NCBI GenBank assembly: GCA_963768175.1
Contig: CAVYGQ010000002.1
Location: 7,270 to 71,269 of the forward strand
DNA length: 64,000 nt
From: Candidatus Doudnabacteria bacterium
Lineage (GTDB): Bacteria; Patescibacteriota; Doudnabacteria; UBA920
Direction of reading: 5' to 3'
Part shown: piece by piece, positions 8,719-55,850 of the stretch
How positions within the stretch are numbered: position 1 is the stretch's first letter
Layout: every line of letters starts with the position of its first letter
Translations under genes and position numbers: made by a program
The notes under the pieces: model-generated
What the model saw: the letters and a program-made list of their open reading frames with translations, nothing else
Databases searched by the model: none
What the model was told of the DNA's origin: nothing

Positions 8719-10176
8719 ATGAAACCCATAATTGAAGCTCTAACTTTTGACGATGTCTTGCTCAAGCCTGGCTACAGCGAAGTCGTGCCAACGGAAACGC
8801 AAACTAGGACCAGGCTGACCAAAAATATTTCGCTCAACATTCCCATAATGAGTAGCGCTATGGATACGGTTACCGAAAGCGCCCTGGCCATTGCTTTGGC
8901 CCAACAGGGCGGTATCGGCGTGCTCCATAAAAATATGAGCATAGAAGAGCAGTCCGCAGAAGTGGCTGTAGTCAAGCGTTTTGAAAGCGGCATGGTGGTT
9001 GACCCAATAACGCTGTCGCCCGAAGACACTATTGCCGACGCCTTAGAGGTTATGGAAAAACGGAAAATTTCTGGTTTTCCGATTGTTGATAAAAAAAATA
9101 AGCTGGTGGGCATTTTAACCCACCGCGATTTGCAGTTTGAATCGCGCCTGAATTTGCGTGTCAAAGATGTAATGACAAAAAAAGTTATTACCGCTCCAGC
9201 AGGCACAACTTTGGAGCAGGCCAGAAAGATTTTTCAGCAGCACCGCGTAGAAAAACTGCCGGTTGTGGATTCAGGCCACATTTTAAGGGGTTTAATTACG
9301 GTAAAAGATATTAAACAAACCATCCAGCACCCAAATGCCTCAAAAGACCGTTTCGGCCGCCTGCTTAGTGGCGCAGCTATTGGCGCCACGGGGGATTTTT
9401 TCCAACGGGCCGAGGCTTTAGTAAAAGCCAAAGTGGACGTTTTGGTTATAGACACGGCTCATGGCCACACCAAGCGGGTAATTGAGGCCACTAAAAAGAT
9501 TAAGAAAGCTTTCCCAAAAACTGATTTGATGGTTGGCAATGTGGCCACGGCTGAAGGCGCTAAGGCGTTAATAGCCGCTGGAGCCGATGCCATAAAAGTT
9601 GGCATGGGGCCGGGCAGTATTTGCACCACGCGCATAGTTTCAGGCGCGGGTGTGCCGCAAATTAGCGCAATAATGGAGTGTGGCTCCGTTGCAGCTGTGG
9701 CCAAAGTTCCTTTGGTCGCGGACGGCGGCATTAAGTTTTCCGGAGACGTTACCAAGGCTTTGGCCGCTGGCGCGGACTCGGTAATGATCGGCAGCCTTTT
9801 TGCCGGAACCGCTGAAAGCCCCGGCGAGCTGATTTTGTATCAGGGCCGGAGCTTTAAAACTTATCGTGGCATGGGAAGTTTGGGCGCAATGAAAAAGGGA
9901 AGCAAAGACCGTTATGGTCAGGAAAGCGAGATGAACATGCAAAAATTAGTGCCCGAAGGCATAGAAGGTCGGGTGGCTTATAGGGGCCCGCTGGCTAATG
10001 TTGTCAGCCAGCTTGTCGGCGGCCTGCGAGCCGGTATGGGTTATTGCGGGGCAAAAAATATTGCCGAGCTGCACAAAAAAGCGCAGTTCATCCGCATTAC
10101 CAATGCCGAACTCAAAGAGTCCCATGTGCATGATGTGGCTATTACCAAAGAAGCACCGAATTATCATCAGGAATAA
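8719..10176 (+). CDS. guaB: IMP dehydrogenase with CBS pair
   Basis: [13 protein letters not shown] region, and catalytic loop [20 protein letters not shown]. Confidence 0.9.
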
Positions 10177-10363: not shown

Positions 10364-11230
10364 GGGTATTCCTAGTCAAATGGAACAGATTTCAGCGTTT
10401 TAGATAAGTAAACATTAGGCGAACTAAAGATTTCCGGTGAGGAAAACCTGAGGCAAAATTCACTCACATATTCCGGCAGGTATTCTGGGGTAGTATGGTG
10501 GTACATCCGTCGGATAAAAGTCCTGAGGTTGCCAAACATGCCTTCAATTTCAGAGGTTAATCCAAACTCAAATTTTTTGTGTATATCAACTTTATGCTTC
10601 ACCTGCCACCACTGCTCAATCTTTTTGTAGATGCCTGAGCCGTCGGTTTGCAGCTTAGTGTTAGGCTCTATGCTTTGAAAAATGAATTGCGAGGCTTCAG
10701 TCTTGTTAACAGAATTTTTAAAAATAACTTGATGCGCCAGTTTTTTACTCCCGACTTGCTTAGCCAATAGTAATGAAAGTTGTTTAAAGTAAGCTTCATC
10801 CATTTGGACACAGCCTGTTAAAATGGGCTGTAAATCGGGCAAATGCAATCGAAATTGCCTAAACCAGTGGTAAACCGCTTCTTCCCCCACATGGCAGAGT
10901 TTCTGGGACTGAAGTACGGGAATCCTTTGAGTCCAGCACCAGAGTAGAGCGTAGAAAGTTCTGAGGTTTAATTTCATCCCTGAAAGCCAAGTGCCAGTCA
11001 GCAGGCCAAAGGGTTTGCGGCATCTCTGGCAGCGATAACGGTTTTCTGATGAATACACTTTTCTGCTGCGGCACCTGGGACAGGCCAAATTCTTTCCGAA
11101 AACGATTTTCCTTAATTGTTGCTTAATTTTGGCTTCCGACGGTATTTGGTTTAAGAGAGCTATCATAAAACAAGAGTGTTAATTATCATAAACTGTATAT
11201 TACTCTTGTTCCAACTGCCCTAGTATACCC
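10364..11230 (-). mobile_element. complete IS1595-family insertion sequence (about 867 bp) with imperfect terminal inverted repeats GGGTATTCCTAG / CTAGTATACCC and an 8-bp target-site duplication TGGTCGTG
   Basis: Direct repeat TGGTCGTG at 10356-10363 and 11231-11238. Terminal inverted repeats at 10364-10375 and 11220-11230. A single transposase ORF lies inside. An 8-bp target duplication is characteristic of IS1595. Confidence 0.7.
10372..11166 (-). CDS. IS1595-family (ISXO2-like) DDE transposase with N-terminal zinc ribbon
   Basis: CPRCRSRKV...YRCQRCRKPF zinc ribbon. LTGT...LNLRTFYALLWCW helix region. VQMDEAYF matches the IS1595 VEIDETY catalytic region. Confidence 0.75.
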   Translation of the reverse strand: MIALLNQIPSEAKIKQQLRKIVFGKNLACPRCRSRKVYSSENRYRCQRCRKPFGLLTGTWLSGMKLNLRTFYALLWCWTQRIPVLQSQKLCHVGEEAVYHWFRQFRLHLPDLQPILTGCVQMDEAYFKQLSLLLAKQVGSKKLAHQVIFKNSVNKTEASQFIFQSIEPNTKLQTDGSGIYKKIEQWWQVKHKVDIHKKFEFGLTSEIEGMFGNLRTFIRRMYHHTTPEYLPEYVSEFCLRFSSPEIFSSPNVYLSKTLKSVPFD

Positions 11231-11457
11231 TGGTCGTGCCTATTGACTTTTTTCTTTAAACCTGCTATACTAATATTACAAAAGTATCGGATAGCCAATT
11301 AGGGGTCGGCGAGCCAAAATTAGCTCGGTAAGACGACAAAAAAGCTATAGCGAAACAAAAATAAACACAATCTAATTGAAATATACGAATTTGTATCGGA
11401 ATTATCCGGATAACCCGTTTTTGGATATTTGGATATAATTTTCCGATTTGGTCCGGT

Positions 11458-11742
11458 TTGAAACAAAAAACAAAAATAAAATTACATATTGTGTCTCCAC
11501 AAGAGCGACAATTTATGCTTGGCTCGGGTAAGCTGATTCCCATAAATCAGGCGGCCAAAGGAACTCCGTACTCCGCGGAGTATTTGAGCTTGCTTGCAAG
11601 AAAAGGTAGGCTGGATGCCGTTAAAATTTCTCGCGATTGGTTGACTACCGAGAACGCGGTTAAAGAGTACGTGGCCGAACAAATAGAAAAGCACCAGAAG
11701 ATGATGCTTCTTTTGGGCAACTCTGGAAAGGAGGCGCCATGA
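11458..11742 (+). CDS. small HTH protein (excisionase/MerR-like HTH_17 fold), paralog of 18240..18521
   Basis: TPYSAEYLSLLARKGRLDAVKISRDWLTTENAVKEY resembles the excisionase-family HTH (AEYLGVS...G.LPAVKIGRRW). Stop overlaps the start of the giant gene (ATGA). Confidence 0.45.
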   Translation: MKQKTKIKLHIVSPQERQFMLGSGKLIPINQAAKGTPYSAEYLSLLARKGRLDAVKISRDWLTTENAVKEYVAEQIEKHQKMMLLLGNSGKEAP

Positions 11743-14700
11743 AAATTTCCAGGAAAATGGCGCGAGCCTTAGGCCGGAAAATTGTTGTACCACAAACCGC
11801 CCTTGCGGTTGTTGCGGTTGTGGTTTTAGGCAGTTTTGCGTTTTTGTGGCTGCATCCCAATAAAGCATTCAAGCCGGAAAGCTTAGTTGAAAAGCAGCGG
11901 GTATTGTTTGCATATAACCAAACCACAGCCAGCCCAGATTCCGCCATCCCTTCATTTATCCAAGTCTTAACTGGTGAAGATTTTTCATATGTCGCGGGCC
12001 CAAAAACAGAAGTTTTAGCCGCAACTCCGCCCCCCTTTAGGCAACAGGATTCTTTACCGAACGTGCAGTCTTGCAAAGAATTTCTAGCTAGCTTTGGGGT
12101 CCAAAGTAACAGGGCGGTTTCGCAGTTAGGGTTTAACATATTAAATGATTGGGAATCGGTAAGTGATTTGGCGGTAAGGTCAAATGACCAAGTTCATACG
12201 CTGGCAAATAATTTTGTATCCGACATTAAAGCACCTTACTTGGCTGCGGCCAGCGTCTTACGTCCCGCTTTGCGCGAGCAAAAAAATCAGGCCATAGCCT
12301 TAGGCGGTAAAATTAATCAAATTTACAACCAACAGCTTTTGGCGTTTGGAAATGAAGGCATTAAGTTTTTTGACGGGGTAACCTCGCTGGAAGCGTCATC
12401 TGTTTCGCGGGCTGTCGCAGCGGGGAGCCAAGTCAACAACTTCTTTGCCCAGCTGAATAAAAATTACAATGAAATTCTTTTAGCCTGCGGACAGGCAGGG
12501 ATAAAATCTTTGGACCAGCTTTCCATCTCGGAAGCAAGGCAAGCCAGCCACGCAGAGGTCATTACCATAGATGCCCAAGTTGCGTTTGCTGATTTTTACG
12601 CGCATGCCAGCGATGACGCTTTGGCTTTGGCCGAGCCGGTACAGTTGCTCTGCGATAAAGCCAATGATCAATTGTTGGCTTTAGGGCAATTTATAATCGG
12701 GCCCGGCGAGGAGAATATTTTGCCGGAGATGACGCACGAGAAGATGCTAGCGACGAAGCTTGCTAACTATGAGGCCGCCATTAAATTAAGTTCAAAGAAG
12801 GTTTTACGTACAAATGCATCAGCGCTTTTGGCAATGGCGCCAAACGGGAAGGGGCAAGTCCTTGCCGCACATACCGTTGCCCAACAGTCCGCTTCGGCTG
12901 CTTCCTTAAGCCGGCAAGTTAAAGATATCCTTTACGGTTTTATGCAGCAGGGTTTATTTGGGCTTAGTGCTTCCAATTACGCTCCCGATGGCATCTTGCA
13001 TGTGGGAGTTAATAACGGGCAGACTTACAGCGTTTCTAGTGGTCTTGGGCAAAACAGTGGCGGCCAAACTACCTCGGTAATTGGTGGATCGTTCGCGCCG
13101 GTATCTTATGTCTTTGGCGGATCGGCCAGCAACTACACCACCGGCAGCATGGGAAGCTTTACGGATTTGTCGGCCACTAATTTTAGTTCAGGCAATAATA
13201 CCAATTTAAACCTCTTAAATGTATCCGGAGCAGCTACGCTGTCTTCGGCTCTTACTGTCGCTGGCAATACTTCTTTAGCTTCCGCATCAATTACCAGTTT
13301 GGCTTTAAGTCAGCCGCTATCTTTAACTTCGGGCGGCTTGGGTATAGACGCGTCCGCCATTTTAAAGGGCGGCATTCTTGCCGGCACGGGCAGCGGCATG
13401 TTTGGCATCCAAACTGCCGGCTCCGATGGACTCTGCCTAAGCGCTTCTTCTACCGCGGTTTCAGGACTGGCCTGGACTGCTTGTACTTCGTCTTCCACGG
13501 CCGTTACTTTGCTTAACGGTCAAAGCCAGGGCAGCCAAACTTTTGCCACGGGCAGCGATGCCAATATTGTTTTGACCGTTATTTCCCAAAACGGCATACA
13601 TACTTTTACCCCAAGCTGGCAAGGGCAATTGGCTGTCAGCCGTGGCGGCACCGGCACCTCCACCGCCCCTACTGCCAACCAGATACTAATCGGTAATGGC
13701 GCTGGGGGCTACAACCTGGTGGCGACCTCCACCTTAGGTTTGCAGCCTGCGGGCAACTACTTAACTGCCGCCTTAACCTCCCTCTCCGGCATGACCGGCC
13801 CGGCCTTAACCATCGCCACCTCCACCTCGGGCAATACCTTTACCTATGCCACCTCCACCAACCAGCTGACCTTGACCATCCCCCAGAATCTCATTAACAG
13901 CGTTGCCACCTCCTCCAGCTCCGGCAGCTTCTACGTCTCGACCTCCAGCACCGGCTCCACCAACGCCTTAACCATCAACTTCCCCAATAACCTGGTGACC
14001 TCGGTTTCCGGCTCCGGCTCCCTCCTCTCTTCCGGCGGCACTACTCCCACCCTCCAGCTGCAGAACTTAACCAGCGGTGACCTGCTGTTTGGAGCCGGCA
14101 GCAACACCTTGGCCACCTCCACCAATTTGACCTTTACCGGCAATAACCTGCTCAGCGTCAACGGCTCCATTAACGCCAGTTCCTCCAACTTTACCAATGC
14201 TTCCACCAGCAACCTGACCGTCACCAGCTTTTCCAACTCCAACACCTACTGTGTCCACAGTGTTAATGGATTGCTCCAGACCACGGCCTCGGACTGTGGA
14301 GCCGGAGGCGGCGGCGGAGGCGGTTGGTCCACCTCTTCTCCAAACACCATCTATAACTCCTTTGGTACCTTAGTCGGCATTAACTCCACTACCCCCATTG
14401 CCAGCCTTACAGTGCAAGGGAAATCCGGCTCTACTACCCCCATCTTTGTGGTGGCTTCTTCTACCAACGCCCAATACTTAACCGTCCTGGCTAACGGGAA
14501 TGTGGGGATTGGGACGAGTGCTCCAGCCCAGACTTTAACACTGCAGGGCACTTCGGGAACGGATTTATTGAACATCGCTTCCTCAACCGGCACGAGTGTG
14601 CTGTATGTCGCCCAGAACGGCAATATCGGCATTGGCACCACCACGCCGGCCGCCACCTTAAACGTGCTGGGTACGGGAATTATCCAGAGCTCCACCAACA

Positions 14701-17700
14701 CCCCCACGGCTTTCCAGGTGCAAAACGCCAGCGGCACCCCAATCTTGCTGGTAGATACCACCCCGACCTTTGGCGCCACCACCACCAATTACATCGCCAA
14801 TCCGGGCTTTGAAGTCAACACCTCCGGTTGGGCGGCTTCCGGCACCGGCGCCACCATTGCCCGGGTGACTACCAATAAGTATATGGGTCTGGCTTCATTA
14901 AAGATTGACAGCTACGGCTCGGGAGCCGGCCAAGGAGCCAGCACCACTGCCTTTGTCATGAGCCCCGCCGCCGGCACCTATGTCTTAAGCTTCTACGCCC
15001 GCACCGACATCAGTTCCTCCAGCTTTAGCACTTTAATGGCCGGCTATAGCACCAGCACCCAGTTCTCCGCCTGTACCCTAAACTCCAACACGGTCTCCAA
15101 CCTGGGTTGGAGACGCTATAACTGCAGCTTTACCGTAAGCGGCCCCATTACCCAAATCTTCATCGGCCAATCCGATGCCAACCCCAACCGCACCTTCTAT
15201 ATTGATTCCATCCAGCTGCAGTTGGGCAGCGCGCCTACCCCTTATGCCATCGGCAACATCCAGCTCCGCGGCGTCATTACCAGCCCGGTGTCCCTGCAGT
15301 CCCTGTCCAACTCCGTCACCGCTTTCCAAATCCAGGATCAGACCGGAGTGTCCAACCTGTTCATCGCCGATACCTTAAACAACGCCATTGACATCGGCAC
15401 CTCCACCGGCACCTCCGTTTTGAACATCCAGGGAGCAGCCGGTACCTCTAATTCTTTATTAAACATCTCTTCCTCCACCGGCGCTTCCATGTTCTATATT
15501 GCGGCTACCGGCAGAATCGGCATTTCTTCCAGCACCCCTGCGGCAACTCTCTCTCTGCAAGGCACTTCGGGAACCAATGCCCTGTACATCGCCAGCTCCA
15601 CGGGAACCGGCTTAATGGTCATCCAGCAAAACGGTAACGTGGGCATCGGCTCCTCCACCCCCACCGGGTTATTATCCGTGCAGGGAACCAGCGGAGTGTT
15701 TACAGACTTAAGCGATCTGGTCTTTACCGGTACCGGTCCTTTAGCCGCTACCACAGTCAACGGCTTAAAGATCCAAAGCTACCTAACCTACGGGGCAGGC
15801 GGCCAGTTTAACGGCATTTACCTGCCGATAACCGGCTCCGGTACCGCCACCGGCACCATTGTTGGCATCAACATCGGCAGCATTACCGCCGGCAGCGCTA
15901 CGGCCACCGCCATCTCCATCGGCAGCGGCTGGAATTCCTACCTGAACCTTGCCACGACCGCCACCACGACCTTAATCAACATCCAGGGCACGGCCGGCCG
16001 CGACACCCTAAACATCTCTTCCTCCACCGGCGCTTCCATGTTCTATATTGCGGCTACCGGCAGAATCGGCATTTCTTCCAGCACCCCTGCGGCAACTCTC
16101 TCTCTGCAAGGCACTTCGGGAACCAATGCCCTGTACATCGCCAGCTCCACGGGAACCGGCTTAATGGTCATCCAGCAAAACGGTAACGTGGGCATCGGCT
16201 CCTCCACCCCCACCGGGTTATTATCCGTGCAGGGAACCAGCGGAGTGTTTACAGACTTAAGCGATCTGGTCTTTACCGGTACCGGTCCTTTAGCCGCTAC
16301 CACAGTCAACGGCTTAAAGATCCAAAGCTACCTAACCTACGGGGCAGGCGGCCAGTTTAACGGCATTTACCTGCCGATAACCGGCTCCGGTACCGCCACC
16401 GGCACCATTGTTGGCATCAACATCGGCAGCATTACCGCCGGCAGCGCTACGGCCACCGCCATCTCCATCGGCAGCGGCTGGAACTCCTACTTAAACCTTG
16501 CCACGACCGCCACCACGACCTTAATCAACATCCAGGGCACGGCCGGCCGCGATACTTTGAACATCTCTTCCTCCACCGGCGCTTCCATGTTCTATATTAC
16601 AAATGGCGGCAACGTCGGCATCGGCTCATCCAGCCCCATCGCTACTTTAGCCCTAACCGGCACTGTCGGGACCAACCCCTTAGTGGTTGCCTCTTCCACC
16701 GGTACCCAGCTTTTGACAATCCTGCAAAACGGCAACGTGGGCATCAATACCAGTACGCCCGGGGCGACTTTAGCCATCCAGACCCAGGCCGGAGTTAACG
16801 CTTTCACCGTGGCTTCCAGCACTGGCTCCACCACTACCTACTTTACCATTACCAGCATTGGCAACGTCGGCGTCGGCACGGCCACTCCGGCAAGCAGGTT
16901 TGTGGTGGCCGCTAACTGTTCCGGCTTCAACGCCAACCCCGGCGCCTGTTCCGATTATGCCGAATTATATCCTGCCAGCGAGGATATTACTGCTGGTGAT
17001 GTGGTGGTTATAGATACCTCGGCCTCTGCGGCCGCGGTCAGGTTAAGCACTTCTTCCTACGATTCCAACCTTTTGGGAGTGGTCTCCACTAATCCGGCTA
17101 TGGTTATAGAAGGCGACAGCGTGCAGTTTATGAACGGCAATTACCATAATGATCCGCGCCGTCCGGCCGTGGCGCTGGCCGGGCGCGTGCCAGTCAAAGT
17201 TACCAACGAGAACGGCAATATTTATCCTGGTGACTATTTAACTTCCTCGGCTTCGCGACCGGGCTTTGCCATGAAAGCCACAGGCGCAGGCATGGTTTTA
17301 GGCCAGGCGCTTGAAAGTTTTAATCCGTCTTTTGACAACGCCACAGGCACAGTTATGGTATTTATCAAACCCATGCACTATGTGCCAAAAGTGGCTGATT
17401 TGCTTCAAATTGGGGCAAATATTGACAATCAGGCATGGCTTTTGTCGCTGGCGAATTTGAATATGACCAACGCTTCGGTCTTTGGCGATATCGCCGTTAC
17501 TGGCTCTTTGGCTGTGCAAAATGATCTTCATGTGGGTGGCATAATTTACGTTGCGACTTTGAATGTGGACACCATTAACGCCAAGAAATTATGTTTGGGG
17601 CAAACTTGCGTGACCGAAGACCAGCTTAAAGCAATATTACAGTTCGTAAACAGCCAAAACCAAAATTCCTCGAACCAGCCCGTCACCTCCGGTTCGGGGC

Positions 17701-17780
17701 AAGCCGCCCCTTCTACCGGCGGTTCTTCCGATTTCTCAACAGGCTTGCGCCTGCGACGGGACAAGTTGCCCCTCAATTAG
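11739..17780 (+). CDS. giant (2013 aa) cell-surface protein: N-terminal signal anchor, Ser/Thr/Gly-rich beta-repeat region, CBM4/9-like carbohydrate-binding module, tandem duplicated repeat domain, globular C-terminal domain
   Basis: N-terminal TM. CBM4_9-like segment NPGFEVNTSGW...GTYVLSFYART...WRRYNCSFT...FYIDSIQL. Recurring T.T..L.V.QNGNVGIG..TP.A.L.V.G repeats. Exact 183-aa duplication. Confidence 0.7.
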   Translation: MKISRKMARALGRKIVVPQTALAVVAVVVLGSFAFLWLHPNKAFKPESLVEKQRVLFAYNQTTASPDSAIPSFIQVLTGEDFSYVAGPKTEVLAATPPPFRQQDSLPNVQSCKEFLASFGVQSNRAVSQLGFNILNDWESVSDLAVRSNDQVHTLANNFVSDIKAPYLAAASVLRPALREQKNQAIALGGKINQIYNQQLLAFGNEGIKFFDGVTSLEASSVSRAVAAGSQVNNFFAQLNKNYNEILLACGQAGIKSLDQLSISEARQASHAEVITIDAQVAFADFYAHASDDALALAEPVQLLCDKANDQLLALGQFIIGPGEENILPEMTHEKMLATKLANYEAAIKLSSKKVLRTNASALLAMAPNGKGQVLAAHTVAQQSASAASLSRQVKDILYGFMQQGLFGLSASNYAPDGILHVGVNNGQTYSVSSGLGQNSGGQTTSVIGGSFAPVSYVFGGSASNYTTGSMGSFTDLSATNFSSGNNTNLNLLNVSGAATLSSALTVAGNTSLASASITSLALSQPLSLTSGGLGIDASAILKGGILAGTGSGMFGIQTAGSDGLCLSASSTAVSGLAWTACTSSSTAVTLLNGQSQGSQTFATGSDANIVLTVISQNGIHTFTPSWQGQLAVSRGGTGTSTAPTANQILIGNGAGGYNLVATSTLGLQPAGNYLTAALTSLSGMTGPALTIATSTSGNTFTYATSTNQLTLTIPQNLINSVATSSSSGSFYVSTSSTGSTNALTINFPNNLVTSVSGSGSLLSSGGTTPTLQLQNLTSGDLLFGAGSNTLATSTNLTFTGNNLLSVNGSINASSSNFTNASTSNLTVTSFSNSNTYCVHSVNGLLQTTASDCGAGGGGGGGWSTSSPNTIYNSFGTLVGINSTTPIASLTVQGKSGSTTPIFVVASSTNAQYLTVLANGNVGIGTSAPAQTLTLQGTSGTDLLNIASSTGTSVLYVAQNGNIGIGTTTPAATLNVLGTGIIQSSTNTPTAFQVQNASGTPILLVDTTPTFGATTTNYIANPGFEVNTSGWAASGTGATIARVTTNKYMGLASLKIDSYGSGAGQGASTTAFVMSPAAGTYVLSFYARTDISSSSFSTLMAGYSTSTQFSACTLNSNTVSNLGWRRYNCSFTVSGPITQIFIGQSDANPNRTFYIDSIQLQLGSAPTPYAIGNIQLRGVITSPVSLQSLSNSVTAFQIQDQTGVSNLFIADTLNNAIDIGTSTGTSVLNIQGAAGTSNSLLNISSSTGASMFYIAATGRIGISSSTPAATLSLQGTSGTNALYIASSTGTGLMVIQQNGNVGIGSSTPTGLLSVQGTSGVFTDLSDLVFTGTGPLAATTVNGLKIQSYLTYGAGGQFNGIYLPITGSGTATGTIVGINIGSITAGSATATAISIGSGWNSYLNLATTATTTLINIQGTAGRDTLNISSSTGASMFYIAATGRIGISSSTPAATLSLQGTSGTNALYIASSTGTGLMVIQQNGNVGIGSSTPTGLLSVQGTSGVFTDLSDLVFTGTGPLAATTVNGLKIQSYLTYGAGGQFNGIYLPITGSGTATGTIVGINIGSITAGSATATAISIGSGWNSYLNLATTATTTLINIQGTAGRDTLNISSSTGASMFYITNGGNVGIGSSSPIATLALTGTVGTNPLVVASSTGTQLLTILQNGNVGINTSTPGATLAIQTQAGVNAFTVASSTGSTTTYFTITSIGNVGVGTATPASRFVVAANCSGFNANPGACSDYAELYPASEDITAGDVVVIDTSASAAAVRLSTSSYDSNLLGVVSTNPAMVIEGDSVQFMNGNYHNDPRRPAVALAGRVPVKVTNENGNIYPGDYLTSSASRPGFAMKATGAGMVLGQALESFNPSFDNATGTVMVFIKPMHYVPKVADLLQIGANIDNQAWLLSLANLNMTNASVFGDIAVTGSLAVQNDLHVGGIIYVATLNVDTINAKKLCLGQTCVTEDQLKAILQFVNSQNQNSSNQPVTSGSGQAAPSTGGSSDFSTGLRLRRDKLPLN
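15462..16559 (+). repeat. near-identical tandem duplication, 2 x 549 bp, inside the giant gene
   Basis: Minus-strand ORFs 15494..15760 and 16043..16309 are identical (offset 549). Sequence starting 15462 repeats at 16011. A third, diverged partial unit begins near 16558. Confidence 0.85.
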
Positions 17781-18114
17781 ATTCGGGGCAAGTTGCCGGC
17801 ACTTCCACACCGGCCGCTGTTGATACTAATTTGCCGCCAGAAACCTCACCGGATACGGGCAATACGGTAGATACGATAAATGTTGCCCCGTCTGACACCG
17901 CGTCGCCTTCTTCCACTACCGAGTCATCACCGTCACAGGATCCCGCGCCAGCCGCGGTGCCTGCTCCCCAAGCTGACCTGGCACCATTGGATGCGCAACC
18001 GGCATCCGATTCTTCCGCTCCAGCCACCCCTTAAAAAATTGTTTGTAAATAAAGAGGCCTTTTACGCTACGCAAAAAGTCTCTTTATTGTGGTCTAATTC
18101 TTGCTGATAAGCCA

Positions 18115-18232
18115 AAAAAAGTATCGGTTAAACTATTAAGTATCGTTTTAACAAATAAATATCGTTTAAATTAATTTATATCGGTTAGACAAACAAATAT
18201 TGTTTAAACTATAATATATCGGTTAAGCTATA
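18115..18232 (+). promoter_or_regulatory. iteron-like array: six (A)TATCG(G)TTWAAC direct repeats at about 20-21-nt spacing upstream of the second HTH gene
   Basis: GTATCGGTTAAAC, GTATCGTTTTAAC, ATATCGTTTAAAT, TATATCGGTTAGAC, AATATTGTTTAAAC, TATATCGGTTAAGC. Confidence 0.55.
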
Positions 18233-18239
18233 TAATGTC

Positions 18240-18521
18240 ATGCTTACCCCAGATCAGCAAAAAATTTCAAATTCCAGCAGGCTTGTGTCCTTAAGCCAAG
18301 CCGCGTCACAGACGCCGTATTCGGCGGAGTACTTAGGTTTGTTGGCGCGGAAGGGGAAACTGAAAGCGGTAAAAATCGGCCGCGACTGGTTGACAACCGA
18401 GCAAGCGGTTAAAGAATATACGACAAAGCAAATACAAAAGCACGAGAGAATGCTAAAAAAACTGAGTTCGTCAGGCGAGGGGGGAACGGCCACAAAAACG
18501 CTGAATTATCATCACGAATAA
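18240..18521 (+). CDS. small HTH protein (excisionase-like), paralog of 11458..11742
   Basis: TPYSAEYLGLLARKGKLKAVKIGRDWLTTEQAVKEY shares about 55 percent identity with the upstream paralog. Confidence 0.45.
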   Translation: MLTPDQQKISNSSRLVSLSQAASQTPYSAEYLGLLARKGKLKAVKIGRDWLTTEQAVKEYTTKQIQKHERMLKKLSSSGEGGTATKTLNYHHE

Positions 18522-18631
18522 GCCGCTGATTTGTCGCTGATTACTACGCTGAACGGACGCTGGAATAGAAATTAAAATGCTAACCGAAAGGTTAGCATTT
18601 TCGTATTTCCATCTTTCGTGATTAGTAGAAG

Positions 18632-20230
18632 TTATCCCCACTCAATCGTAACCGGCGGCTTGTCGGATATCCTGTAAACCACGGCGCCGACTTCGCGGAT
18701 TTCATTGGTCATGCGCTGGGAGACGTGTTTGAGAAAATCGTAGGGGAGTTCCGTGGCTCTGGCGGTAAACCCGTTAACAGACCAAACCGCCCAGAGGGCA
18801 ATTACGTGGCCTTGGGCCGCGTCGTCGCCTTTAGTGCAGGTTGTCGTGGAGTTTGTGACCACAGCGCCAGCTTGCCAGATGTTGTTATATAAATTCCATT
18901 TGCGCATTTCTTCTATGTAAATTCCGTCTACCAACCTGGCCGTGTGCAGTTTTTCCGCCGTGACTTCGCCTTCTATCCTGACCACTAAGCCGGGTCCGGG
19001 GAAAGGCTGGCGGACCAAAAGCTCTTCCGGCACTCCCATAAAGCGGCCAATGTTCCGCCCCGTGTCTTTAACGCAATCGCTAAGTGGCTGGATTTCCGGC
19101 AGGCCAAAATTTAAATTGACGTTATGATGGATTTTTATTTGCGCTTTTTTGGAGCCGCTGTCATATCCGCCCCCGCTTTCAGAAATGTCCGTGTATAGCG
19201 TGCCCTGCGCGATAAAGTCCGCGTCAAAGCTTTTGGCTTCTTCTTCCAAAACCTGTTTATAGATGTCGCGCATGGCAAGCCTTTTGTCGTGCATGGACAT
19301 TTTACCTTTCAACGCGGCCAAAAAATTTTTGGTGGCGTCGACAATTTTTATTTTTATCCACTTTTGGCCGCCAAAATACTTTAACACATTGGCTTCGTCG
19401 TCAGGCCGGTCTATGCCTTTAATGTAGACGCCTAAAATTTGGCCAGATTTTCCACTAACGGCATTTTTTAACAGGTAAGCCACGGTTGAGGAATCGCTAC
19501 CGCCGGACAGCGCCAGCAGAACTTTTTTGTTACCGATTTTTTTCTTAAGTTCGGCAATTTTTTTGTGTGCCACTTCGGAGGCCGGGAACCTGTCTTTGGC
19601 GCCGCAAATATTAAAGCAAAAATTTTCGTAGATTTTAGTTCCATATTTGGTCTCCGTAACCTCGGGATGGAATTGCACGCCCCAAAGGTGTTTGAAACTG
19701 CCGGCGGCTGCGGGAGCGTTATCGGTCGTGCCAAAAATATCCAGTTTGGGATCGGCGAATATTTTGTCGCCATGGCTTTCCAAAACTTCGGATTTTTTTG
19801 GCAGACCTTCCAGAAGCTTTGACGGTTTAACAATATTGAATATATGCGTGCCGAATTCGCGCTTATCGGAAGCCGTTACCGGTATCCCGACATGATGCGC
19901 CCACATTTGATAGCCCAAGCAAATGCCCAGAACCGGAAGGCCTAAATCAAAAATTGCTTCGTCAAACGGGGGGTTTTCATACGCGGAAGCCGGCCCGCCG
20001 GAAAGAATTATGCCAATTGGGTTTACTTTTTTGACATCAGCCGCTGTCACGGACGCGGGATCGGCCACTAGACAAAAAACGCCCAAGGCGTCCAATTTTT
20101 GTTTAATTAAATGGTCAAACTGGCTGCCCATGGAAAATAACAAAAAAAGTTCATCTGTCTTGCGAACCTTTTTTTCTTCGGCAATTTTCACCAAAGCTTC
20201 AGCGGTAGCTTTTTTGAAAGTTTGGAGCAT
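18632..20230 (-). CDS. guaA: GMP synthase (glutamine-hydrolysing)
   Basis: Class I GATase (GICLGYQ, HPE) plus ATP-PPase P-loop LLALSGGSDSS. Confidence 0.85.
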   Translation of the reverse strand: MLQTFKKATAEALVKIAEEKKVRKTDELFLLFSMGSQFDHLIKQKLDALGVFCLVADPASVTAADVKKVNPIGIILSGGPASAYENPPFDEAIFDLGLPVLGICLGYQMWAHHVGIPVTASDKREFGTHIFNIVKPSKLLEGLPKKSEVLESHGDKIFADPKLDIFGTTDNAPAAAGSFKHLWGVQFHPEVTETKYGTKIYENFCFNICGAKDRFPASEVAHKKIAELKKKIGNKKVLLALSGGSDSSTVAYLLKNAVSGKSGQILGVYIKGIDRPDDEANVLKYFGGQKWIKIKIVDATKNFLAALKGKMSMHDKRLAMRDIYKQVLEEEAKSFDADFIAQGTLYTDISESGGGYDSGSKKAQIKIHHNVNLNFGLPEIQPLSDCVKDTGRNIGRFMGVPEELLVRQPFPGPGLVVRIEGEVTAEKLHTARLVDGIYIEEMRKWNLYNNIWQAGAVVTNSTTTCTKGDDAAQGHVIALWAVWSVNGFTARATELPYDFLKHVSQRMTNEIREVGAVVYRISDKPPVTIEWG

Positions 20231-23509: not shown

Positions 23510-23784
23510 TTATTTGTTTCGTTTAGTTGTTAAAGAGCAAGCCGTATCAGCCTATCAAAAAAGGCCACCCGCTTGCCACATCTACCCTTTCGGATAGAGA
23601 CCTTAGGAAAGGCTAAGACAAGACGGATGACCATCTTCGCTTTCCTAAGGATTTTGCCATGCCGATGATTTCTTATCGGTTTAGGCAACAATTAAATTGT
23701 ATTTAAACTATAGCAAATTTTGCCTTTTAAATAAAGTGTGTTTTTTGTCTTGGCTTTTCCTCGTATTTGGAGCATAATTTAAGA

Positions 23785-50113: not shown

Positions 50114-51694
50114 AGAAAAAATTAAAGCGGGCCGGCGGCGACATCGTAAGGCGATGCGCGCGCGGGTCCGCTAACTTTTAATATTTAACCTTCAACTTCC
50201 AATACCTGTGGTTATCTTTGGGGAATACATTTTTTGAAAAACTAAAAGGCCGCTTATTTAAGGTTGAAATTTTTTATTAACCCTAAACCAGCCACTTCTT
50301 GACAAAGATATTAAAATCATCTAAAATAGTTAAGCAATAAGTTAATAAGAAACGACTATTATGAAAAAAGCTTTATTATTAAGGAAAACGCGGTTTATGT
50401 AAAACGGCCAATTTAAATTGTGCCTGACATAGCCGCGAAAGCGGTTTTTTTGTTGAAAAGCGACACCAACACACGAATACACGCGAATGACACGAATCAA
50501 AGACCTTTAAAATTATCGCCGTATACTTACTGCTCTGCGGATCTCAGCGTTCCAATTTTTTTGGGAACACAGGCTCGTAGAACCGATTTAGAGCAGTAGC
50601 TATATGATGGTAATTGTATTCCTCTGAACAGGCCAAGGGCCTGTGCCACAGCGACGATTATCGTCAGGTTCTTTAACAACTAAATAAAATAAGCCACCAC
50701 GTATAGAATCAGGCGTGGATGGCTTATGGGTAGAAACATTGTAAGAACTAACACACCAATTAACACAGATTGAAAACAAATGAACACGGATTCGTGTTAA
50801 TCCGTAATTATCGGTGTCAATTAGTGTGCAGAAAAGAACATTGTATCCTTACGCAGTTTGCATCAAACAGTTGTAAGATTTAGGATTAAAGATTTAAGTG
50901 GCTGCAGATTGCAGTTACTTACAATTTTAATCTTTCAACTCTCAACTAATTTGGTGGTCACAAATTGCTAGTTAATACTTGTCCCCGCGAAAGCGGGGAT
51001 CAATAGAATATAAAATATATAAGGGTATACGGTGGATGCCTAGGTAATATGAGCCGATGAAGGACGTGATAGCCTGCGAAAAGCCTCGGGGAGCTGGCAA
51101 TAAGCTTTGATCCGGGGATGTCCGAATGGGGAAACCCATGCACTGGAAGAGTGCATGCCTATATGCCGTGGGGTATGTAGTGCGGGAACCGTGCGAAGTG
51201 AAACATCTCAGTAGCACGTGGAAAATAAATCAATTTACGTCGCAAGACGTAAGAGAGATTCCGTCAGTAGTGGCGAGCGAAAGCGGAAGCATATATCAGA
51301 TAAATCGGAGAATCGGATGAATCGGAAAATCAGATCAAACATTATTGAAAAATGGTGTTTTGATCCGACTTCCGACTTCCGACATTCCGATTATTCTGGT
51401 ATTAGCCCAAACCTAATTAGTGTTTTCTAGATCCCCGCTTTCGCGGGGACAGGATTAAAGATTACAGTCGTTGCTAGTTAGGCGTAATAAGTTAGAGTTA
51501 TTGTCCCGCTGTAACGGGACAGGGAATTATGTTTGTTGTTTAGCAGAACACGCCTGGAACGGCGGACCAAAGAGGGTGATAGTCCCGTATCGCGAAAAAC
51601 CATGCAATTTCCTAACTTTTTCTTGAGTACAACCAGACACGAGAAATCTGGTTGGAAATCAGGTCGACTAAGATCTAAGGCTAAATACTCATAT

Positions 51695-51735
<41 letters not shown>

Positions 51736-52376
51736 CACCCCGGAAGGGGGATGAAATAGTATCTGAAACCGTATACTTACAAGGAGTGGAAGACCTTATT
51801 CTTTTTTCCGCAAGGTTAAGGGAATGGTTAACCGCGTGCCTATTGAAGAATGATCCAACGAGTTAATCTTTAGCAGCTTGATTAAGTCTTACCAAAGACG
51901 AAATCGCAGTGAAAGCGAGGATGAATAGTCCGTATTAGGATTTTGATCGGTCGATGACTTAGGTTATCGACCGCGACAATTTCCTAAATGTTGCTAGAGT
52001 TAGACCCGAAACCCGGTGAGCTACGCATGGCCAGGATGAACGTTATGTAAAAGTAACGGGAGGTCCGGACGCACTATTGCTGCAAAAATAGGCGATGAGC
52101 TGTGCGTAGGGGAGAAATTCCAATCGAACCGGGTGATAGCTGGTTCTCCTCGAAATAGCTTTAGGGCTAGCGTCGAGAGTTCCCTTGAGAGGTAGAGCAC
52201 TGAATGGAAACCTGCTGCGCAAGCGGTAGGCTCCAACCAAACTCCGAATTCTCAAGGTCAAGATCTCGGCAGTCAGTCCGTGAGGTCTAAGCTTCACGCG
52301 ACAAATGGAGAAGAATCCACACCACCGTCTAAGGCCCCCAAATCCTAGCTATAGTGCAAAGGATGTGGGGTTGCTC

Positions 52377-52413
<37 letters not shown>

Positions 52414-52511
52414 TAAAGAAAGCGTAACAGCTCACTGGTCAAGCGATCCCGCGCCGACAATATATAGGGGCTAAGCTAGGTGCCGAAGACGTGGATCAGC
52501 GCGTAGCGCTG

Positions 52512-52649
52512 GAAATCCGAAGCACGAAATCCGAAATACGAAACAATATTTAAATTCAAAAAAATAAATCCGAAATGTCGGGTTTAGATATTTGAATTTA
52601 TGATTTAGAATTTGTTTCGAATTTCGATATTCGAATTTCGAATTTGCAG
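52512..52649 (+). other. intervening sequence (IVS) in 23S helix 45: AT-rich hairpin built from TCCGAAAT/ATTTCGAA repeats
   Basis: Inserted between ...GATCAGCGCGTAGCGCTG and TGCTATGCGCTGG (E. coli position about 1170). Long imperfect inverted repeat GGAAATCCGAAGCACGAAATCCGAAATACGAAAC ... GTTTCGAATTTCGATATTCGAATTTCGAATTTGC. Confidence 0.5.
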
Positions 52650-53729
52650 TGCTATGCGCTGGTGGTAGAGGAGTGTTGTTTGCAGGTTGAAGCGGTATGC
52701 GTAAGCGGCCGTGGACAGCAAACAAGCAAGAATGTTGGAATAAGTAATATATATAGAGGTGAGAATCCTCTTCGCCGAATATCCAAGGGTTCCAGGGCAA
52801 CGATCGTCGTCCCTGGGTTAGTCGATCCTAAGAGCGGGCCCCAAGGGGTCCGTCCGATGGAAAATATGGTTGATATTCCATAACCGCCGTAACATTATCC
52901 AAGACGGGACACATCATGGTAGCGTTAGCGTTATCTGACTATTAGCGTTGTTGTACTTGTAGGATGGTTTTTGAGGCAAATCCCAAAGACCTATGCAATT
53001 ATTTCTTACCTCGCAAGAGATGGAAGTAAACGTTGTAATTTCGAGAGTACAAAGAAACCTGGCAACGGGAATTAGCGCAAACCAAGGTGTCAAGAAAAGC
53101 GTCGTGGTTAGGTGCTAGGGTGATCGTACCGTAAACCGACACAGGTGGATGGGGAGAGAATCCCAAGGCGTCCGGAACAATGTTCGTTAAGGAACTCGGC
53201 AAAAAAGCAGGTGTACCTTAGGTATATACCTTGACCTTTTATATGCTGGGTAATGAGAAATTGGAGAAGATAATTCTCCATCAGGAAAGTGGATACCAAA
53301 CAGCCGCACTTATCATGCAGCTGGGAAGGGCTTGACCGATAATCAAGTTTCGGCCTCTGGCCGAGTCCACCTAACAAAGGAGGGAATTCCAGTGTGTGCA
53401 TCCATGGCACAGCTCCGTGCCGCTACTTCATCCTAAAGAGGGTGAAAGCAACTCCGGTCATCGGGGCTGCCTCTTTCCATAGTAGCTGTACACACTGCCC
53501 TCCTTTGGATAATCATCTAATTTTGATTATCCTCATTACCCAGCATATTAAAAGGCCCGCAGCAAAAGACCTCTCCCGACTGTTTACCAAAAACTTAGGT
53601 CCGTGCTAAAGCGCAAGCTGATGTATACGGGCTGATGCCTGGCCAGTGTCAGAAGGTTAAATCCCTTGGCGCAAGCCGAGGGGCCAAGCCCTGATGAACG
53701 CCGGCAGTAACTATAACTGTCCTATGGTA

Positions 53730-54137
53730 ACTGGAATTTATTCTTTTTGGGCGTCATTCTGAGGAGCGAAGCGACGAAGAATCTCAAAATGAGATCCTTC
53801 ACTTCGTTCAGGATGACGCCGATAAGAAGTTTGGCTGCCATAGTAAAATGTAACTATATCGGAAAAAACCTCTCTGAGAAAATTCCGAGGGAAGACTTTT
53901 GTGTCATCGCGAGTGCAGCCGAAGCGATCTTTAAAAGATTGCTTCGTCGGATGCACTCCTCGCAATGACACAGAGGAACCCGTAGAGACTACACGTTGCA
54001 CATCATTTTGGTGATGAAGATATAGTCCGGACTGCATAGCGATATGCAGAATGTGACAGAAATGATCACATTTGTCATTCTGAATTTATTTCAGAATCTA
54101 GATTCCCGCTTTCGCGGGAATGACAATAACAAATCAA
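53730..54137 (+). other. ORF-less group I intron in 23S at the E. coli 1923-equivalent site (between GGTCCTATGGTA and GCGAAATTCC)
   Basis: Exon junction matches CGGTCCTAAGGTA^GCGAAATTCCTTGTCGGG. Conserved R-like GTAGAGACTACACG and S-like GAAGATATAGTCCGG core elements. Peripheral stems carry family B palindromic repeats. Confidence 0.6.
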
Positions 54138-54692
54138 GCGAAATTCCTTGTCGCGTAAGTTGCGACCCGCACGAATGGCATAACGAGTAGAGGACTGTCT
54201 TAACGAACATTCCGATGAACTTACAGTGGCGGTAAAGATGCCGTCTACCCGCAGCAAGACGGAAAGACCCTATGAAGCTTTACTATAGCGTGTCATTGAA
54301 TTAATGCTTTTATTGTTTAGCCTAGGTGGGAGCCTTTGAAGCTTGGGCGCCAGCTCAAGTGGAGGCGACAGGTGAAATACCACTCTGTAAAAATATTAAT
54401 TCTAACCAATGTTTAACCTGCATTGGGACAGTGGCTCGTGGGTAGTTTAACTGGGGCGGTTGCCTCCTAAATGGTAACGGAGGCGTTTATTAAGGTAGGC
54501 TAGGTATGGATGGAAATCATACCGGTAGTGCAAACGCATAAGCCTGCTTGACTGCAAGGGCGGCGACCCGCGCAGGCACGAAAGTGGAAGTTAGTGATCC
54601 GATGCGTTCGAGTGGAAGACGCAAAGCCCAACGGATAAAAGTTACTCTAGGGATAACAGGCTGATCCTCTCCAAGAGTCCACATCGACGAGA

Positions 54693-54731
<39 letters not shown>

Positions 54732-54735
54732 GTGA

Positions 54736-54772
<37 letters not shown>

Positions 54773-55195
54773 TGGTACGCGAGCTGGGTTCAAAACGTCG
54801 TGAGACAGTTTGGTCCTTATCTGCTGTGGGTGTACGAAACTTGAGTAGTCGCTTCGCTAGTACGAGAGGACCGCGAAGCATAGACCTCTGGTGTACCCGT
54901 TGTCCTGTCAAGGGCATGGCGGGGTAGCTAGGTCTAGTTAAGATAAACGCTGAATGCATATAAGCGTGAAGCTGTCTACAAAACTAGGTTTCGTTTTTAG
55001 TCGCAAGACTAAAGAAAGGTTCGGGGAAGACTACCCCGTACAACTATTAGGTTTTAGATTAAAGTTGAAAGACTTAAGTAGCAATACTTAGATCCGTAAT
55101 CTTAAATCTTTAATCTGATATATAGGTTGCAGGTGTAAGCACAGTAATGTGTTCAGCCGAGCAATACTAATCAACCGAAAATTTTAAATTCTATT

Positions 55196-55647: not shown

Positions 55648-55766
55648 TGCGACGTGGGTGGCATTTCCAGCCGGGCTCGACCTGATCCCATCCCGAACTC
55701 AGAAGTCAAAACGGCTTGGGCCAATGATAGTCATACGCATGTATGTGCAAAAGTAGGTGGCTGCCC
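55648..55766 (+). rRNA. rrf: probable 5S rRNA
   Basis: CCTGATCCCATCCCGAACTCAGAAGTCAAAAC (cf CCUGACCCCAUGCCGAACUCAGAAGUGAAAC) and 3' AAAGTAGGTGGCTGCC (cf GAGAGUAGGGAACUGCC). Helix I pairing not resolved by eye. Confidence 0.5.
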
Positions 55767-55850
55767 TTTATATGATTAGCCCCGATGTAAAAATCGGGGC
55801 TTTTCTTTTTGCCGGTAAATGTTATAATTTAACGGATAAAAGGTATTTAA

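Follow-up and report, generated by a model that had tools for sequence, protein, structure and literature searches.

A life attached to other cells is presumed for Patescibacteria, whose giant surface proteins are the prime candidates for recognizing the host. Very large surface-targeted proteins with adhesion-type domains have been described in one episymbiotic lineage, the Absconditicoccaceae (PMC13059738). The DNA considered here, a stretch of 64,000 nucleotides from a Candidatus Doudnabacteria bacterium (assembly GCA_963768175.1, contig CAVYGQ010000002.1; "the window", in whose numbering all positions are given), contains the gene of such a giant protein together with two genes for small helix-turn-helix (HTH) proteins: HTH1, which precedes and overlaps the giant gene, and HTH2, which lies beyond it behind an array of direct repeats. 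The giant protein resembles those of the Absconditicoccaceae in its size, its membrane or signal segment and its lectin- or adhesin-like domains; unlike here, the latter were described without a coupling to HTH proteins, without the box and leader treated below and without a C-terminus of the phage phi29 gp12 type (PMC13059738). HTH1 and the giant gene are predicted to be one instance of a conserved two-gene operon that is widespread in Patescibacteria. This operon is probably autoregulated, and a conserved box at its start is the candidate operator of the HTH proteins.

For each part of the locus there are known relatives with which it can be compared. The excisionases Xis, AlpA and RdfS share the winged-helix fold and weak profile matches with the HTH proteins and are themselves binders of tandem direct repeats, but the HTH proteins have neither a partner integrase nor an att site and their partner is the gene of a giant surface protein. 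The bitopic transcription factors ToxR and CadC are comparable to those relatives of HTH1 that are fused to the giant protein, as both consist of an N-terminal winged helix, a single transmembrane (TM) helix and an extracytoplasmic part. However, the HTH fold resembles Xis and MerR and not OmpR, a fibre of 1,000 to more than 6,000 residues takes the place of the small outer sensor domain, and in the window HTH and fibre are separate proteins. BldC of Streptomyces, a MerR-like winged helix, binds variable numbers of direct repeats in a head-to-tail manner (PMC5859096). Like BldC, the HTH proteins are small and consist of the domain alone, and their candidate sites comprise 1, 2, 4, 6 or about 12 boxes, depending on the locus. 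They differ in that the period in the window is 19 nt, compared with 22 bp per two-protomer BldC site (PMC5859096), in that no significant sequence similarity to BldC was found and in the usual coupling or fusion of the HTH domain to a giant membrane protein. The far end of the giant protein has its counterpart in gp12 of Bacillus phage phi29, whose C-terminal domain is required for folding of the trimer and is then cleaved away (PMC3357383).

The regulatory parts of the locus are the following.

11243 to 11271, + strand: promoter P1, found by a consensus scan (TTGACT, 17 nt, TGCTATACT; extended -10)
11280 to 11296, + strand: leader box AAAAGTATCGGATAGCC, starting 9 nt past the -10 element, in the inferred transcription-start region
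11309 to 11328, + strand: leader hairpin GCGAGC-CAAAATTA-GCTCGG, of the CAAAAYYA-loop type present in most of 27 leaders
11352 to 11361 and 11460 to 11469, + strand: two GAAACAAAAA boxes in the long leader of HTH1
11393 to 11414, + strand: second, degenerate box GTATCGGAATTATCCGGATAAC between these two, seen on inspection of the sequence
11491 to 11742, + strand: HTH1, 83 residues from a probable GTG start, with weak HTH_17 and excise matches
18122 to 18228, + strand: array of six TATCGKTTWRAC direct repeats with a 19-nt period, the first unit of which, AAAAAGTATCGGTTAAAC, is like the leader box
18186 to 18215, + strand: promoter-like site within the array (TAGACA, 18 nt, TATAAT; 11 of 12 matches)
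18240 to 18521, + strand: HTH2, a stand-alone paralogue of 93 residues

The sequence-only reading had presented the product of HTH1 as a protein of 94 residues. An open reading frame (ORF) of that length, running from TTG 11458 to 11742, is indeed present and is the longest, but TTG 11458 falls within a conserved GAAACAAAAA leader box. A start at GTG 11491 yields MSPQERQF, in alignment with homologues of about 80-90 residues that begin with MSPxERQ; based on this alignment, GTG 11491 is most likely the true start and the protein has 83 residues. The stop codon of HTH1 overlaps the ATG of the giant gene in the sequence ATGA, as had been noted, and a strong AAGGAGG lies 7 nt 5' of this ATG. HTH2 is a paralogue, with 57% identity to HTH1 over 81 residues (55 percent in the earlier reading). 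In its AlphaFold (AF2) model, which has a predicted local distance difference test (pLDDT) score of 81, HTH2 assumes the order beta-alpha-alpha-beta-beta-long alpha of an Xis/MerR-like winged helix. The fold matches include Xis, AlpA and RdfS and are of the Xis/MerR/BldC kind, and the HTH proteins consist of the winged-helix domain alone, without the coiled coil or effector domain of MerR. Excisionase families of PHROG are their best, though weak, matches in the phage library, and some homologues are annotated as PF12728.

How general the arrangement is was revealed by a profile search, which yielded 7,660 cluster representatives of the HTH domain (motif TPYSAEYLxLLARKGKLxAxKIGRDW) at E<=1e-3. 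The strong members of the family number 2,122, and many family members carry 2-3 tandem copies of the domain at the N-terminus of proteins of up to 6,890 residues, whereas 2.9 million viral contigs contained only 3 weak relatives. Comparison of 79 genome loci, from metagenome-assembled genomes (MAGs) mostly labelled Patescibacteria or Saccharibacteria and a few assigned to other phyla or to archaea, disclosed three forms. In P0002 of locus L002, in L083 and in about 30 other loci, the domain forms an N-terminal fusion with a giant protein. Stand-alone genes for HTH proteins of about 80-90 residues are followed by a giant or open-ended ORF, the sole exception being an HTH2-type copy in L004, and most of them overlap the next ORF by 4 nt. 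Less often, in about 10 of the 79 loci, the domain forms the C-terminal part of a protein of 300-350 residues. All of the fused proteins that were checked have a single TM-like segment, 130-350 residues after the N-terminus, and all but two of the split giants have an N-terminal hydrophobic segment. The N-terminal fusion implies that the HTH domain and the giant protein belong together as two parts of one system, and it is because pairing or fusion recurs across loci that HTH1 and the giant gene are assigned to one conserved operon. Two claims made from the sequence alone have to be revised accordingly: the HTH genes do not bound a module, HTH1 being the first gene of the operon and HTH2 an extra stand-alone copy, and excisionase function is not supported, as the conserved partner is the giant ORF and not an integrase and the profile scores stay below their cut-offs. 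The same reading was to be doubted if the HTH paralogues were widespread next to unrelated genes; they are very widespread, but their neighbours are consistently giant membrane-anchored proteins. The C-terminal form was seen in L029, L058, L059, L063, L070, L071, L075, L077 and L080-L082, several of which are MAGs labelled archaeal or non-patescibacterial; several TATCGG boxes lie upstream of these genes in L029, L058, L059 and L075.

The leaders of the HTH genes are also conserved. The arrangement TTGACAAAA...TGCTATAAT is found 5' of HTH genes in about 25 other loci, and in 27 aligned leaders the box, with the consensus GTATCGG(A/T)TAGMC, is near-invariant and occupies the same position. The order in most loci is TTGACAAAA, a spacer, TGCTATAAT, 7-11 bases and AAAAGTATCGG(A/T)TAGMC, and after the box a hairpin with the loop CAAAAYYA, GAAACAAAAACAAAAA and the start codon. 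TATCGG/CCGATA has a frequency of 5.8 per kb within 250 nt 5' of HTH ORFs versus 0.45 elsewhere, a 13-fold enrichment to which 62 of 83 upstream windows contribute (Poisson p about 1e-87). In distant fused loci the box forms a palindrome, ATCCGATA-N-TATCGGAT, at the same position, and distant loci carry additional copies of the box 5' of the promoter and on the other strand, at places that would not be transcribed; L083 has TATCGCTTATCCGAGA as a variant of TATCGGAT. The stems of the hairpin vary between loci yet stay paired, as revealed by a loop-anchored stem count, with a mean of 8.0 pairs versus 5.0 in chimeric controls (maximum 5.8 in 200). RNAfold gave a mean z of -3.1 for the 27 leaders, with 23 of them below -1.64. 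MAFFT plus RNAalifold did not return a consensus structure for the leaders, because their stems are too variable for alignment, and the absence of an Rfam match at E<=1 within 11000-18700 indicates that the leader corresponds to no described RNA family. A second motif, TT(A/G)TCCACAG(A/G)AA, which is like a DnaA box (TTATCCACA), was observed about 50-100 nt upstream of HTH-fused giant ORFs in L031, L042, L044-L046, L049-L052, L054, L055, L057, L060 and L061 and further in L064, L065, L067, L072, L073 and L079; it is found together with the palindrome ATCCGATA-N-TATCGGAT, and the leader in the window lacks it.

The array before HTH2 had been described as six repeats spaced by about 20 nt. Six units are present, but their period is exactly 19 nt. 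The TATCGKTTWRAC cluster is unique in the window, and 0 of 100 shuffles reached its 11 matches. The array unit is the same box that stands at the promoters of HTH genes in other genomes, and the last box of the array lies directly 3' of the -10 element of the promoter-like site. The HTH2-like gene of L004 is preceded by a longer series of related units, about 12 as counted by eye, and the giant gene of L005 is followed by a shorter one of about 4. Among the loci fetched, only the window and L004 have an HTH2-type copy, with an array before it and no giant gene after it. These two copies share only KIGRDW, in place of the KISRDW of the HTH1 type, and were not cleanly separated from the others in an identity matrix. 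A metagenome scan for three TATYGKTT at 19-nt spacing returned 120 loci with an HTH gene in none of them (0/120); the 40 of these 120 that were listed were all other 19-nt tandem repeats. In L004, runs of ATAGGAC/ATAAGAC-type repeats (8720-8790 and 9430-9640) lie on either side of a gene for a 208-residue protein, which is situated between the giant gene and the array with its HTH2-like gene. In L005 (17960-18320), a strong TTGACT-17-TATAAT promoter past the array is followed by a transcript of about 90 nt up to a terminator and then by a tRNA-like sequence.

The second gene of the operon and the parts of its product are listed below.

11739 to 17780, + strand: giant surface-protein gene, 2013 residues as read in the window
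11781 to 11852, + strand: N-terminal signal anchor from a hydropathy scan, about residues 15-38, preceded by K/R-rich residues
11994 to 13301, + strand: N-proximal region, residues 86-521, with 41.6% identity (tblastn) to the P0002 gene in locus L002
14781 to 15320, + strand: beta-sandwich like CBM_4_9 and gene transfer agent (GTA) head-spike-fibre domains, residues 1015-1194, matched in Pfam, NCBIfam and PHROG
15460 to 16598, + strand: tandem duplication of a 549-nt (183-residue) unit in about 2.07 copies
16950 to 17408, + strand: intramolecular-chaperone (IMC) domain of the phi29 gp12 / Peptidase_G2 type, starting at SDYAE, residue 1738
17747, + strand: one-base difference, G in the window and GG in contig L001, by which the ORF of the window is shortened
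17748 to 18034, + strand: Ser/Pro/Thr/Ala-rich tail, in the frame of the ORF 17831-18034 in the window and in frame with the giant gene in L001
18048 to 18088, + strand: inverted repeat and candidate operon terminator (19-nt arms, 84% complementary), 14 nt past the restored stop

The signal anchor proposed earlier was confirmed. The segment at about residues 15-38 is the only hydrophobic one in the giant protein, and as it follows a K/R-rich start, the protein is predicted to carry an N-in signal anchor. After the N-proximal region, 41-residue beta units of the form ...ASSTG...NGNVGIGT..P...L.V.G run in series. The whole protein gave no match to Pfam or NCBIfam, and only scans of single segments were informative. 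Residues 1015-1194 scanned alone matched CBM_4_9 (PF02018) with E 2e-7 and 31.9 bits, against a cut-off of 25.9, and the NCBIfam family GTA_spike_fiber (NF048003) with 41 against 36, as well as PHROG tail and minor-head proteins of phages; the CBM4/9-like domain thus holds above the curated threshold, though only with the segment scanned by itself. An exact look-up showed the giant protein to be absent from the gene-position index, and a word-index search with the whole protein, limited as such searches are, found three homologues only, because the repeats saturate the index. Between 13000 and 17000 the GC content of the giant gene is 54-57% and its GC skew strongly negative (-0.17 to -0.26), with flanks of 42-48% GC; as judged from the translation, this is probably an effect of the codon composition of the Gly/Ala/Thr/Ser-rich repeats (ACC, GCC, GGC, TCC) and does not prove a foreign origin.

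The last 293 residues of the giant protein have 110 homologues. PF11962 (Peptidase_G2) was matched by 6 of 52 aligned homologues, with a best E of 1.7e-7; the segment from the window itself does not match PF11962 at the Pfam threshold. The family profile identified the pre-neck appendage of phi29, 6qz9_A (gp12), in the PDB with E 1.4e-5. In the alignment, SDFAE of gp12 corresponds to the profile consensus DlAE and to SDYAE in the window, so that the cleavage motif S-D-x-A-E is present at the start of the domain, and SDFAE...GVIS of gp12 is paralleled by SDYAE...GVVS. In both proteins the domain is C-terminal to a long repetitive fibre or spike region. Cleavage of gp12 reportedly takes place at Ser691|Asp692. 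The AF2 model of the C-terminal region has a core pLDDT of >90 and displays the autochaperone fold; decoration and cement proteins of phages also turn up among the matches of the model. Relatives of the domain number 279 in viral contigs. Unlike gp12, the protein of the window is cellular and not part of a virion, has about 2,100 residues and an N-terminal membrane helix, continues for about 90 residues in a Ser/Pro-rich tail after the domain and stays below the Pfam threshold. The anchor, the CBM/spike-fibre domain and the gp12-type C-terminal domain thus point to a membrane-anchored fibre assembled from phage fibre modules. In this respect the earlier picture of a fibre-like surface protein of the carbohydrate-binding type that is tied to HTH genes is upheld, but not its phase-variable part.

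Phase variation had been suggested by two features of the giant gene, the first of which lies at its 3' end. An open second frame does continue past the stop, to 18034, and the SGQxA-coding repeat (17694-17708 and 17783-17797) is out of frame, as reported. However, the Logan contig L001 (ERR10755942, 1936 nt), which equals window positions 16691-18625 at every base but one, has GGCTTGGCGCC where the window has GGCTTGCGCC, and its ORF continues without interruption past ...STGLAPATGQVAPQLDSGQVAG... as far as the stop at 18034. Restoring one G at 17747 gives a giant protein of 2098 residues. A scan of 17700-17800 for tandem repeats found none, and the site of the frame switch is neither a homopolymer nor a short repeat. 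Since L001 reads through and the site is not slippery, the frame break is understood as an error or rare variant rather than a switch, probably a one-base deletion in the consensus or in a rare variant; the claim of a C-terminus that varies by frameshift is thereby reduced to a GG-to-G difference that the independent contig lacks. A similar P/T/S-rich tail ends the homologue P0003. Related giant genes in L002 (6001-16542) and L083 (687-11356), both on contigs named contig_NNNNN, are split into three consecutive ORFs, which overlap in L002, and these splits resemble the indel errors of long-read assemblies. As they are probably frameshift errors, database lengths of 1513, 1760, 1210 and 451 residues are taken to be those of fragments.

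The second feature is the duplication, which had been called very recent and exact. The copies are identical over 475 nt (15460-15934 and 16009-16483) but differ past this tract at 7 sites, 15935, 15942, 15944, 16004, 16007, 16008 and 16010. All 7 differences are synonymous transitions, spread over five codons; that 7 of 7 changes are silent argues against assembly noise, and the differences as such imply a certain history of the duplication: it is either older, with later homogenisation of the 475-nt tract, or has a junction region that stems from a diverged copy. The best explanation is an ordinary domain expansion that was later partly homogenised. Metagenomes were scanned for variants in repeat number with a 32-mer of the duplicated unit, which found no match. 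The unit was also considered as the target of a diversity-generating retroelement, which was excluded, as the differences are C/T and G/A transitions without specificity for adenine, and a reverse transcriptase was not noticed in the vicinity.

The HTH proteins are the natural candidates to bind the box, since the array unit is the box of HTH promoters in other genomes. According to the autoregulatory model, which we hold to be probable though well short of certain, a strong sigma-70-type promoter would drive a leader of box, hairpin and A-rich tract ahead of HTH1, and the HTH proteins would bind GTATCGG(A/T)TAGMC as DNA. The single box at the start site of the operon would serve the negative autoregulation of a very costly gene, and binding to the six head-to-tail boxes over the HTH2 promoter would be cooperative, like that of BldC or Xis. 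The giant protein would be held by one N-terminal membrane helix and extend as a long projection like a phage tail fibre, composed of a helical stalk region, the 41-residue NGNVGIGT-type repeats and the CBM/head-spike-fibre beta-sandwich. Its C-terminal gp12-type chaperone would aid folding of the trimer and would then be cut off at S|DYAE, the Ser/Pro tail being lost along with it. Several points weigh against this model. The pairing of HTH protein and box is one of co-occurrence alone, and the box could act as RNA because it lies in a transcribed leader beside a covarying hairpin. A period of 19 nt is no whole number of helical turns, and the array of L005 is not followed by an HTH gene. The scores of HTH1 and HTH2 remain below threshold both for HTH_17 (PF12728; 15.5 and 19.8 bits, threshold 27) and for TIGR01764 (12.8 and 22.1 bits, threshold 28.8). 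Trimerization and C-terminal processing of the fibre at S|DYAE are suggested only by analogy with gp12, as is sugar binding by analogy with the CBM domain, and the deletion in the window may be a real variant.

The most serious alternative attributes the conservation of the leader to RNA. Box and hairpin would form a leader element for mRNA stability or translation and the HTH domain, rather than recognising the box in DNA, would have the RNA as its ligand or be a cytoplasmic handle in the targeting, secretion or anchoring of the giant protein, and the array would have a different role. In agreement with this proposal, the box begins a few bases past the inferred start, which would place it at the 5' end of the mRNA, and next to it on the 3' side comes the hairpin, in which the CAAAAYYA loop is conserved and the stems covary; minimum free energy folds of several loci show the 3' half of the box paired to sequence further downstream, the palindrome of the distant loci could make a 5' hairpin of 9-10 bp, and the HTH domain usually resides in, or is coupled to, a membrane protein. 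Arguing against it are the copies of the box that distant loci have 5' of the promoter and on the complementary strand, the arrays of 4 to about 12 direct repeats that overlap or precede promoters, as is typical of DNA sites, a fold that is that of the DNA-binding Xis, MerR and BldC proteins and the lack of an Rfam family that matches the region. On balance we regard an RNA element as unlikely, though it deserves to be kept in mind.

Three further explanations take up single features of the locus. A module for a phase-variable adhesin, with an excisionase-like regulator at either end, C-terminal frameshift switching and active repeat expansion, could draw on the one-base difference between two near-identical assemblies at the frame switch and on the 475-nt identical tract, which could recombine. 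But the indel is in a GG dinucleotide, outside any homopolymer or short-repeat tract, and touches only the tail past the IMC domain, which by analogy with gp12 is probably cleaved off; the 7 synonymous transitions show that the duplication is not brand new, and copies of the HTH2 type are rarely seen, unlike the HTH1-giant operon, which is general. Such a module is therefore quite improbable, and of the regulated surface-fibre system originally proposed, the linkage of HTH and giant genes and the shared box remain but phase variation does not. The weak matches to PHROG excisionase families, the presence of Xis, AlpA and RdfS among the fold matches, the adjoining IS1595 transposase, a tyrosine recombinase gene upstream of P0002 in L002 and the higher GC of the giant gene relative to its flanks could be taken to mean that the HTH proteins are recombination directionality factors (RDFs) of an integrated mobile element and the array its arm-type site. 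We give this very little credence: across the 79 loci the conserved neighbour is the giant ORF and not an integrase, the HTH domain is fused to membrane proteins, its viral relatives are few and weak, and the GC content follows most simply from the Gly/Ala/Thr/Ser-rich protein sequence. A repeat search found no long direct repeats bracketing the region, nor was the combination of integrase and att site found that would mark an RDF. IS1595 elements use a DDE transposase and are not known to have an RDF. The last explanation starts from the array, which the sequence-only reading had called iteron-like: six direct repeats at even spacing within an AT-rich stretch between genes could be iterons with a function in replication or partition. 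Yet none of the adjoining ORFs (HTH2, guaA and the giant gene) was recognised as a gene for replication initiation or partition. Housekeeping genes of the chromosome, guaB and guaA, flank the region, rRNA genes lie at a greater distance in the window, and the box occurs singly at HTH-gene promoters in many genomes, so that iterons are hardly credible.

To return to autoregulation by the HTH proteins, a literature search found no description of the pairing of HTH and giant genes, of the box, of the leader or of the gp12-type C-terminus, the matches being unrelated papers and primers. Individually the parts have known relatives in gp12-type autochaperones, CBM/spike-fibre domains, BldC/Xis winged helices and the giant surface proteins of Patescibacteria; the combination of a family-specific box and a structured leader with a winged helix coupled or fused to giant single-pass fibres appears to be new. 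It provides a candidate regulator family with thousands of members, a candidate operator of defined sequence and a conserved structured leader for costly giant genes, and a fibre made of phage parts predicts a trimeric protein with C-terminal processing. For annotation, it corrects a probable frameshift error and indicates that "excisionase family" labels on HTH genes are misleading. More speculatively, HTH domain, TATCGGAT operator, hairpin leader and giant fibre might constitute an undescribed control system throughout the phylum, the ancestral, fused form of which would have been a membrane-tethered transcription factor with an attachment fibre like a phage tail fibre, thousands of residues in length, as its extracellular part. 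This is doubtful; if true, host contact or its loss would be reported straight to the promoter of the fibre itself, in the manner of ToxR, and the fused circuit would have given rise to the split form of the window, with its extra HTH2 under control of the array.

The region is flanked by guaB (8719-10176) and guaA (18632-20230, minus strand), as identified from the ORF translations. Two further features lie between these genes and the operon or HTH2.

10372 to 11166, - strand: IS1595-family transposase gene, between guaB and the operon promoter
18574 to 18601, no strand assigned: perfect 12-bp hairpin between HTH2 and the convergent guaA, likely a bidirectional terminator

The IS1595 DDE transposase is the sole mobile gene among the neighbours of the region; it comprises a zinc ribbon and, of the DDE domain, the C-terminal two-thirds (profile positions 59-152 of 153). 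Further along, a 23S rRNA gene occupies 51009-55190 (+ strand) and is followed by a 5S rRNA gene at 55654-55769 (+ strand); a 16S rRNA gene was not found within the 64-kb window. The 23S rRNA gene has 4182 nt compared with 2925 nt in the model, owing to insertions of about 1.2 kb, which are common in bacteria of the Candidate Phyla Radiation (CPR). A LOOT RNA (Rfam RF03000) was matched at 23561-23687 (- strand) with 56.6 bits, above the gathering score of 46.4.

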